Shown here piece by piece: positions 35,039-35,266 of a stretch of DNA of 64,000 nt. This stretch comes from Anaerolineae bacterium (GTDB taxonomy: Bacteria > Chloroflexota > Anaerolineae > S140-20). The stretch is taken from NCBI GenBank assembly GCA_027021705.1, contig JALUTT010000120.1:7702-71701 (forward strand), in the 5' to 3' direction. Under the pieces are notes generated by a model, which was not told the DNA's origin, did no database searches, and saw only the letters and a program-made list of their open reading frames with translations. A program made the translations under genes and the position numbers. Each line of letters opens with the position of its first letter. Position 1 is the stretch's first letter.

Positions 35039-35066
35039 TTGCATTTTGGGCAAAACGTGTTAGTAT
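35039..35066 (+). promoter_or_regulatory. Candidate promoter TTGCAT-N16-TAGTAT upstream of the CHAT operon leader
   Basis: TTGCAT at 35039-44 and TAGTAT at 35061-66. Predicted TSS is about 190 nt upstream of the CHAT ATG. Confidence 0.45.
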
Positions 35067-35121
35067 GGTAGGCGAGTGGCGTGAAACGTGAAAGGCGAGA
35101 CATACCGCGTGTTGCGTCCCG

Positions 35122-35250
35122 TCCCTTGCCTCTTGCGCCTTGCACCTTGCGACCTGCACCTTGTGCCTTGCACCTTGCAACCTGCACCTTGTGTCTTGCA
35201 CCTTGCGACCTGCACCCTGTGCCTTACACCTTGCGACCTGCACCTTGCAC
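35122..35250. repeat. About 4.5 tandem copies of a 28-nt unit (CCTTGCACCTTGCGACCTGCACCTTGTG), itself built from CCTTG(C/T)(A/G)AC sub-repeats, in the CHAT operon leader
   Basis: Copies at about 35138-65, 35166-94, 35195-221 and 35222-50, with single-base variants. Confidence 0.7.
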
Positions 35251-35266
35251 CTAACCGGCAACTGCG

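Follow-up and report, generated by a model that had tools for sequence, protein, structure and literature searches.

The 238-nt intergenic region between a DUF3786 gene and a CHAT-domain protease gene of an Anaerolineae bacterium holds a long tandem array that ends 10 nt before the CHAT start codon, and the question raised by this locus is whether the array regulates the gene behind it or is repetitive intergenic DNA. A preliminary description of the sequence had proposed a copy-number-variable switch (phase variation by slipped-strand mispairing), a protein-binding array, or a structured or translated leader. The window analysed here is the whole 64,000-nt (64-kb) stretch of DNA in which the locus lies. 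The features around the array are as follows.

34384–35028, + strand: DUF3786 gene at the end of a peptide ABC-transporter operon
35039–35066, + strand: promoter-like AT-rich box TTGCAT-N16-TAGTAT (TTGCAT at 35039–35044, TAGTAT at 35061–35066), located by sequence
35067–35123, + strand: unique, purine-richer part of the presumed leader, with weak 7-nt periodicity and no substitutions relative to strain L131
35124–35256, + strand: heptamer array, 19 contiguous units, consensus (C/A/T)CYTGYR
35132–35247, + strand: higher-order 28-nt repeat (TRF: 4.1 copies, 90% matches, score 197)
35257–35266, + strand: 10-nt spacer GGCAACTGCG from the array end to the ATG, with no Shine-Dalgarno (SD) sequence
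35267–36754, + strand: CHAT-domain protease gene, 495 aa (Pfam PF12770, E = 3e-33)
36748–37710, + strand: second cassette gene, 320 aa, no family match
37739–38623, + strand: third cassette gene, P-loop/STAND-like, 294 aa (302-aa ORF)

Structure and setting of the array

A tandem repeat ahead of the CHAT gene was recovered by TRF, by a repeat search and by a shuffle test, at the place originally described. It is non-coding, lying between the DUF3786 stop (35028) and the CHAT ATG (35267), and its period is not divisible by 3. The units follow one another in the order CCTTGCC TCTTGCG CCTTGCA CCTTGCG ACCTGCA CCTTGTG CCTTGCA CCTTGCA ACCTGCA CCTTGTG TCTTGCA CCTTGCG ACCTGCA CCCTGTG CCTTACA CCTTGCG ACCTGCA CCTTGCA CCTAACC, the last being a degenerate terminal unit, and positions 2–5 of the unit (C-Y-T-G) are the best conserved. 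The 28-nt super-period arises from the four-heptamer block CCTTGCA CCTTGCG ACCTGCA CCTTGTG (printed in register), such heptamer blocks having been duplicated secondarily, and the TRF score of 197 for this period tops all tandem repeats of the window. Of the repeat hierarchy proposed at first, the 28-nt period was retained, but the 9-mer sub-repeat CCTTGNNAC was not, the elementary unit being the heptamer N-C-Y-T-G-Y-R. TRF also called a period of 14 at 35124–35252, a spacing that the repeat search gave as well, and the self-identity of the array rises from 0.64 at lag 7 to 0.70 at lag 14. Ten matches to a degenerate 26-nt motif were found in the window, all of them within 35124–35247, with 0.00 expected (100 shuffles). 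The 28-nt blocks are 90% identical, and at most two adjacent heptamers are the same. On the + strand the array contains 41% C, 18% G and 70% pyrimidine. No inverted repeats were found at the array by the repeat search; the units are contiguous and have no spacers, so the array is not a CRISPR. It is the only CCTTGYR-type array within the 64-kb window.

The array lies, as first described, between a promoter-like box and the CHAT start. The box itself is present with a TG two bases ahead of the candidate -10 (TGn), but it agrees with the sigma-70 consensus at 7/12 positions and was missed by a sigma-70 scan, which, like a terminator scan, made no call within 34000–36500. The box is the sole AT-rich patch before CHAT (36% G+C, in a genome of 66% G+C) and is 100% conserved in L131. 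The terminator scan gave nothing behind DUF3786, so transcription may also run through from the upstream operon. At the other end of the leader, the CHAT frame is closed upstream by an in-frame TAA (35252–35254), which, together with the N-terminal alignment with homologs, supports the ATG at 35267 as the CHAT start. This start has no SD, whereas GAAGGAGGAG precedes the ATG of the AdoHcyase gene at 38707 and AAGGA(G) precedes the CHAT homologs. The upstream flank gave no convincing trace of a decayed inverted partner arm: its lag-7 periodicity falls only within the top 2.3% of window segments, and its complementarity to the array is not significant, with 92/500 shuffles scoring as high.

The CHAT catalytic motifs HxxGHG and NACQGAT are conserved in the alignment with homologs, which are at most 56–59% identical. 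In the homolog operons L132 and L133, the CHAT gene is followed by genes for a small protein, a P-loop protein and then a large TPR protein. The third cassette gene of the window and the third gene in the L132 operon are orthologous over their full length (67% identity), which rules out a truncated, decaying cassette. The TPR protein of the homolog operons, of ~1500 aa, is missing from this cassette. No tandem repeat occurs upstream of CHAT in L132 or L133, which have plain leaders with a promoter and an SD; the array is not a conserved CHAT-operon leader. The second cassette gene contains a coding tandem repeat of its own, a 12/24-nt repeat AGGGGCTTCAGC present 4.6 times at 37439–37513, and the contigs of two other assemblies, L225 and L226, start inside the gene, suggesting that assembly broke off at that repeat or close to it.

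Array length among related strains

Array length was compared in five independent assemblies, which are consensus sequences and would hide length heterogeneity within a population. In L001 (99.92% identity over 7.9 kb) and L002 (100%), which encode the exact CHAT protein, the intergenic region is identical base for base, so that the array is the same in three assemblies at ≥99.9% identity (the window, L001 and L002). A contig from a hydrothermal-vent metagenome, L124 (98.3% identity), begins inside the array at 35127, and from there to 35256 (130 array bases) the length is equal, with substitutions at 35137 and 35138. L131 (97.4% over 5.5 kb) has the same DUF3786–CHAT arrangement, with an array that is 63 nt (9 heptamers) shorter, at 10 versus 19 units. 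The flanks are perfectly conserved between L131 and the window although the arrays differ. In the 5.5 kb compared, the 63-nt indel is the larger of two indels and stands alongside 77 substitutions; a unit-by-unit comparison suggests at least two events, of ~28 and 35 nt.

Copy number therefore varies among strains (19 vs 10 heptamers), as had been supposed, but a fast phase-variation switch is not supported, the length being constant in the three closest assemblies and in L124 from 35127. Judged from these sequences, array length appears to shift over 1–3% sequence divergence and not within the timescale of a culture. Imperfect units are expected to suppress slippage, and with units that differ from one another, changes of length should be rare: strains 1.7% apart in sequence have the same length, and at 2.6% it differs. 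The position of the tract also speaks against slipped-strand ON/OFF control. It lies outside the ORF and downstream of the candidate -10, not between -35 and -10, so switching by frameshift or by promoter spacing is impossible.

More distant relatives, L122 (GCA_003695545.1, a 'Chloroflexi bacterium' MAG), L123, L129 and L130, are 92.5–95% identical and share the transporter operon and DUF3786. Synteny with them is lost at 35052, and a convergent ClpB-like gene stands in place of CHAT. By this comparison the CHAT cassette and its repeat leader appear lineage-specific. The candidate -35 lies in DNA common to these relatives and the candidate -10 in lineage-specific DNA; with the breakpoint at ~35052 between them, the putative promoter would be a junction hybrid. 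Two metagenome scans, one with the array–ATG junction and one with the upstream flank, returned no further strain variants, and exact-protein look-ups for cassette genes two and three gave either no match or the same two samples again. A cluster member, P0121 (56 aa), was a false lead from an unrelated context.

Heptamer arrays in other genomes and other repeats of the window

A 44-bit pattern derived from the array was searched in one representative genome per species. CCTTGYR arrays were found at at least 119 loci, against ~0.07 expected by chance, among Desulfobacterota, Bacteroidota, Acidobacteriota, Chloroflexota, a 'Methanobacteriota' MAG and other groups. Most of the arrays are intergenic; they comprise 4–36 units and often lie a few nucleotides past a stop codon, facing either way with respect to the adjacent genes (about 60:35). 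In viral contigs, perfect four-unit CCTTGYR arrays were present at 20 loci, and three composition-matched permuted heptamers gave 32, 15 and 23 loci. A special cross-phylum CCTTGYR family was rejected on these equally frequent permuted heptamers, and because the controls are as common, the recurrence of CCTTGYR reflects the general abundance of heptanucleotide simple sequence repeats (SSRs). The result also carries a caution: the same heptamer array found across many phyla does not amount to a shared element.

Heptamer SSRs are over-represented in bacterial intergenic DNA and differ in length between related strains (PMC4692102, PMC4679880, PMC2700814); polymerase slippage has been proposed as their origin, and their function is unknown (PMC4692102, PMC2700814). 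Examples are Xanthomonas GGGAATC, Nostoc GGGGAYT, the cyanobacterial STRR and Geobacter GGGACCG/MTYCTGA, and such repeats sometimes occur as inverted pairs (PMC4692102, PMC2700814). The CHAT array resembles them in its head-to-tail 7-nt units (2 to ~40 in that class), which are heterogeneous, intergenic, and variable in length and sequence between strains. Unlike the Xanthomonas, Nostoc and Geobacter SSRs, it has a clear 28-nt higher-order period and is present as one array in the 64 kb examined. A G-quadruplex is impossible, as CCTTGYR lacks G-tracts.

A further observation concerns loci L003–L121 and L135–L154. Where an inverted partner lay within 200 nt, the order was purine arm (YRCAAGG)n, loop, pyrimidine arm (CCTTGYR)n, in a ratio of 24:1 and then of 26:0 and 3:0. 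Inverted partners were rarer for the permuted control heptamers (2/70 loci). A unit bounded by TIRs would fit such a fixed orientation of the arms, as would a binding protein selective for orientation. One MAG (VGTL01, 'Methanobacteriota') carries 17 of the at least 119 loci.

Several other repeats were noted in the window. At 38630–38692, about eight tandem octamers (AGCGGCTT AGCGGCCT AGCGACCA AGCGACCA AGTGACTA CCTGACCA AACGACCA GATGACCT) occupy the gap between the third cassette gene, which stops at 38623, and the housekeeping AdoHcyase gene, whose SD (GAAGGAGGAG) and ATG (38707) they run up to; the assemblies L225 and L226 show identical spacing. In sequence layout these octamers recall tandem 8-bp operator arrays such as met boxes. 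The contrast drawn at first with housekeeping genes, for which tandem-repeat leaders were called unusual, is beside the point here: CHAT belongs to an accessory cassette peculiar to this lineage, and AdoHcyase, a housekeeping gene 3.4 kb downstream, has a tandem-repeat leader too. A heptamer array at 54494–54560, TCCTCGG x3 then TCGGCGG x3, directly follows the stop codon of a gene that ends at 54493; a hairpin (GGCGGTCCGCC...GGCGGACCGCC-like) and a box of the TATAAT type come after it. Upstream of a solute-binding-protein gene, at 30215–30285, inverted octamer arrays, (CACGAAKG)x3 then (CATTCGTG)x3, form a potential hairpin in a region that does not align with the 93–95% relatives. On the - strand, the leader at 17066–17115 contains a tandem 14-nt duplication that includes the SD (CAAGGGAGACAT / CAAGGAGACAT) and adjoins two GATCACA heptamers just upstream of the start codon. 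At 41155–43446, a GDP-mannose 4,6-dehydratase/epimerase gene is split by an intein with a LAGLIDADG homing-endonuclease domain.

The window also contains a dispersed element of ~121 nt with 15-bp terminal inverted repeats (CACCCTCCCGCAGGT / ACCTGCGGGAGGGT), whose copies are 88–97% identical and which has no Rfam match. The copies are as follows.

32121–32241, + strand: ~121-nt element
33351–33471, + strand: ~121-nt element
59773–59895, + strand: ~121-nt element
28028–28168, - strand: ~121-nt element
62770–62820: partial copy
8578–8622: partial copy

Two of the copies lie in the ABC-transporter operon. Because these are present in L131 and absent from L122, L123, L129 and L130, the element behaves as a recently mobile, MITE-like insertion.

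Interpretation of the array

With a probability of about 70%, we read the array as an imperfect, VNTR-like heptanucleotide microsatellite that changes slowly, lies before a lineage-specific CHAT cassette and has at most a modest effect on expression. It has the features of a heptanucleotide SSR/VNTR: head-to-tail 7-nt units, a non-coding site and whole-unit length polymorphism. The presence of other short-unit intergenic arrays with unrelated units in the window fits a general mutational habit of this genome. The array would have grown in the intergenic DNA ahead of the CHAT cassette of this Chloroflexota bacterium (66% G+C); we infer slipped-strand mispairing or unequal recombination as the mechanism, acting first on 7-nt units and then on 28-nt and similar blocks. 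It would probably be transcribed as most of a ~190-nt 5' leader, from TTGCAT-N16-TAGTAT or by upstream read-through, and in the folding model its RNA self-pairs through TGCA into a rod just upstream of the SD-less start codon. Its most likely effect would be a modest, slowly evolving shift in the level of CHAT expression. That the array is a dedicated, conserved regulatory device or a rapid ON/OFF switch is not supported.

Three features pull against reading the array as an SSR and nothing else. It is suggestive that the array fills the space up to 10 nt before the SD-less start of a potentially toxic effector gene; the array RNA is predicted to be more strongly self-structured than shuffled sequences (MFE -36.9 kcal/mol, z = -4.3); and the flanks are perfectly conserved where the array lengths differ. 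The likeliest alternative is a tuning knob or contingency element, in which the number of units would set the CHAT level and selection would keep the array for heritable diversity of expression. The model for it is the Haemophilus influenzae hmw1A/hmw2A pair, where (TGAAAGA)13-38 lies about 100 bp upstream and its copy number modulates expression (Dawid et al. 1999, in PMC2651432). The CHAT array is like those repeats in being a 10–40-unit heptamer array between promoter elements (here a promoter-like box) and the start of an accessory gene, with strain-variable copy number: two strains differ by nine units, and the downstream genes form an accessory, defence-like cassette. By analogy, 10 and 19 units could be alternative expression states. 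The hmw repeats are perfect, change at high frequency and have a demonstrated effect on expression, whereas the units of the CHAT array are imperfect and its length is stable in close strains. All assemblies at ≥98.3% identity share one length (L124 from 35127), the mutability of imperfect units should be low, and similar arrays stand in housekeeping or unrelated intergenic regions of the window.

The fold models bear on this alternative from both sides. Pairing of 35107–35119 with 35258–35277 over the AUG is predicted in the 19-unit leader and also in a leader with 0 units, which is equally occluded, whereas the 10-unit L131 leader is modelled with a different accessibility of the start codon. 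These predictions of start-codon occlusion are fragile. Quantitative tuning of CHAT expression by array length is, by analogy with hmw, possible at rather long odds, and the contingency element as a whole we also consider improbable, if worth keeping in view. A little more doubtful still is the fullest, model-based form of the idea, that of a selected tuning knob for the CHAT conflict system of a thermophilic Chloroflexota, in which a resized CU-rich RNA rod, with 10- and 19-unit alleles, would set the basal effector level.

The leader might instead act as an RNA element in cis, loading Rho (a rut site), carrying S1/Csp-type proteins so that translation could begin without an SD, or blocking the start as a self-paired rod. 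The pyrimidine content of the array, its C/G ratio of 2.25, its predicted self-structure (z = -4.3), the SD-less ATG and the modelled helix over the AUG would all suit such a role. A precedent is offered by the TAACTGA repeats of Beggiatoaceae and cyanobacteria, which occur in 2–6 copies per set, ~170 per genome, across unrelated phyla, and which in Beggiatoa precede SD-less starts and have been proposed as S1/Csp/CsrA sites (PMC4679880). The CHAT array shares with them heptamers that end a few nucleotides before a start codon without a canonical ribosome-binding site; unlike them, it is one long array, and by the permutation control CCTTGYR is not specially enriched. A rut site would be expected to be an unstructured, C-rich and G-poor stretch of ~80 nt or more that is conspicuous in its surroundings; the C>G skew here is not exceptional, as 102/6387 window segments (1.6%) have an equal or higher ratio. 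The predicted array fold is a rod of 4-bp helices with 3x3 loops, formed through the TGCA palindrome in each unit, and such structure speaks against loading of Rho or S1. For the whole leader the fold is not exceptional (z = -1.85), DNA-level hairpins were dismissed as weak and diffuse, and the flanks are invariant across strains, leaving no covariation to compare. Heptamer arrays elsewhere stand in both gene orientations, and the array is missing from the leaders of CHAT homologs. Rfam returned nothing relevant for 34500–35800 at E<=10, and only a tRNA for the whole window at gathering thresholds. The structured leader proposed in the preliminary description is predicted in silico only, and an RNA element in cis is unlikely.

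A role as an operator or iteron array, in which a repressor or ParB-like protein binds the heptads cooperatively and silences the cassette, is very unlikely. The closest parallel is the omega (ParB) site of pSM19035, with 7–10 WATCACW heptads in mixed orientations that overlap promoters and have a ribbon-helix-helix (RHH) gene nearby (PMC9499535). The CHAT array has the same gapless 7-bp architecture, which omega2 binds and for which omega function needs at least four contiguous heptads (PMC9499535), and C-Y-T-G, the best-conserved part of the unit, would suit this reading. The CHAT locus differs from pSM19035 in that no cognate RHH protein or promoter overlap was found: no RHH or other Pfam DNA-binding domain was detected in the three cassette genes or the neighbours scanned, and the array lies downstream of the putative -10, not over it. 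The equal abundance of permuted heptamers argues against a specific recognition code, as does the occurrence of a single such array in 64 kb against an operator array. The protein-binding array first suggested is without support. Least probable of all is a translated leader or small ORF encoding a regulatory peptide (frames from GTG 35081 to TAA 35252–35254, GTG 35088 and TTG 35140), which the open + strand frames and a 63-nt strain difference that happens to be a multiple of 3 might suggest, but which was rejected because the 7/28-nt period is not a multiple of 3, no SD precedes the GTG/TTG starts, the units contain no stop triplets in any frame and so leave frames open automatically, and the indel is best read as two steps of 28 and 35 nt, lengths not divisible by 3.

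The slow-changing microsatellite remains our preferred reading, and the array is usable as a strain-typing (VNTR) marker for the lineage. If slippage alone accounts for it, it is one more case of the long-noted excess of intergenic heptanucleotides, this time from a Chloroflexota lineage of hydrothermal settings. Should array length tune CHAT after all, SSR-based tuning of expression by an hmw-like mechanism would reach beyond host-associated pathogens to environmental bacteria, and to conflict and defence-type cassettes.
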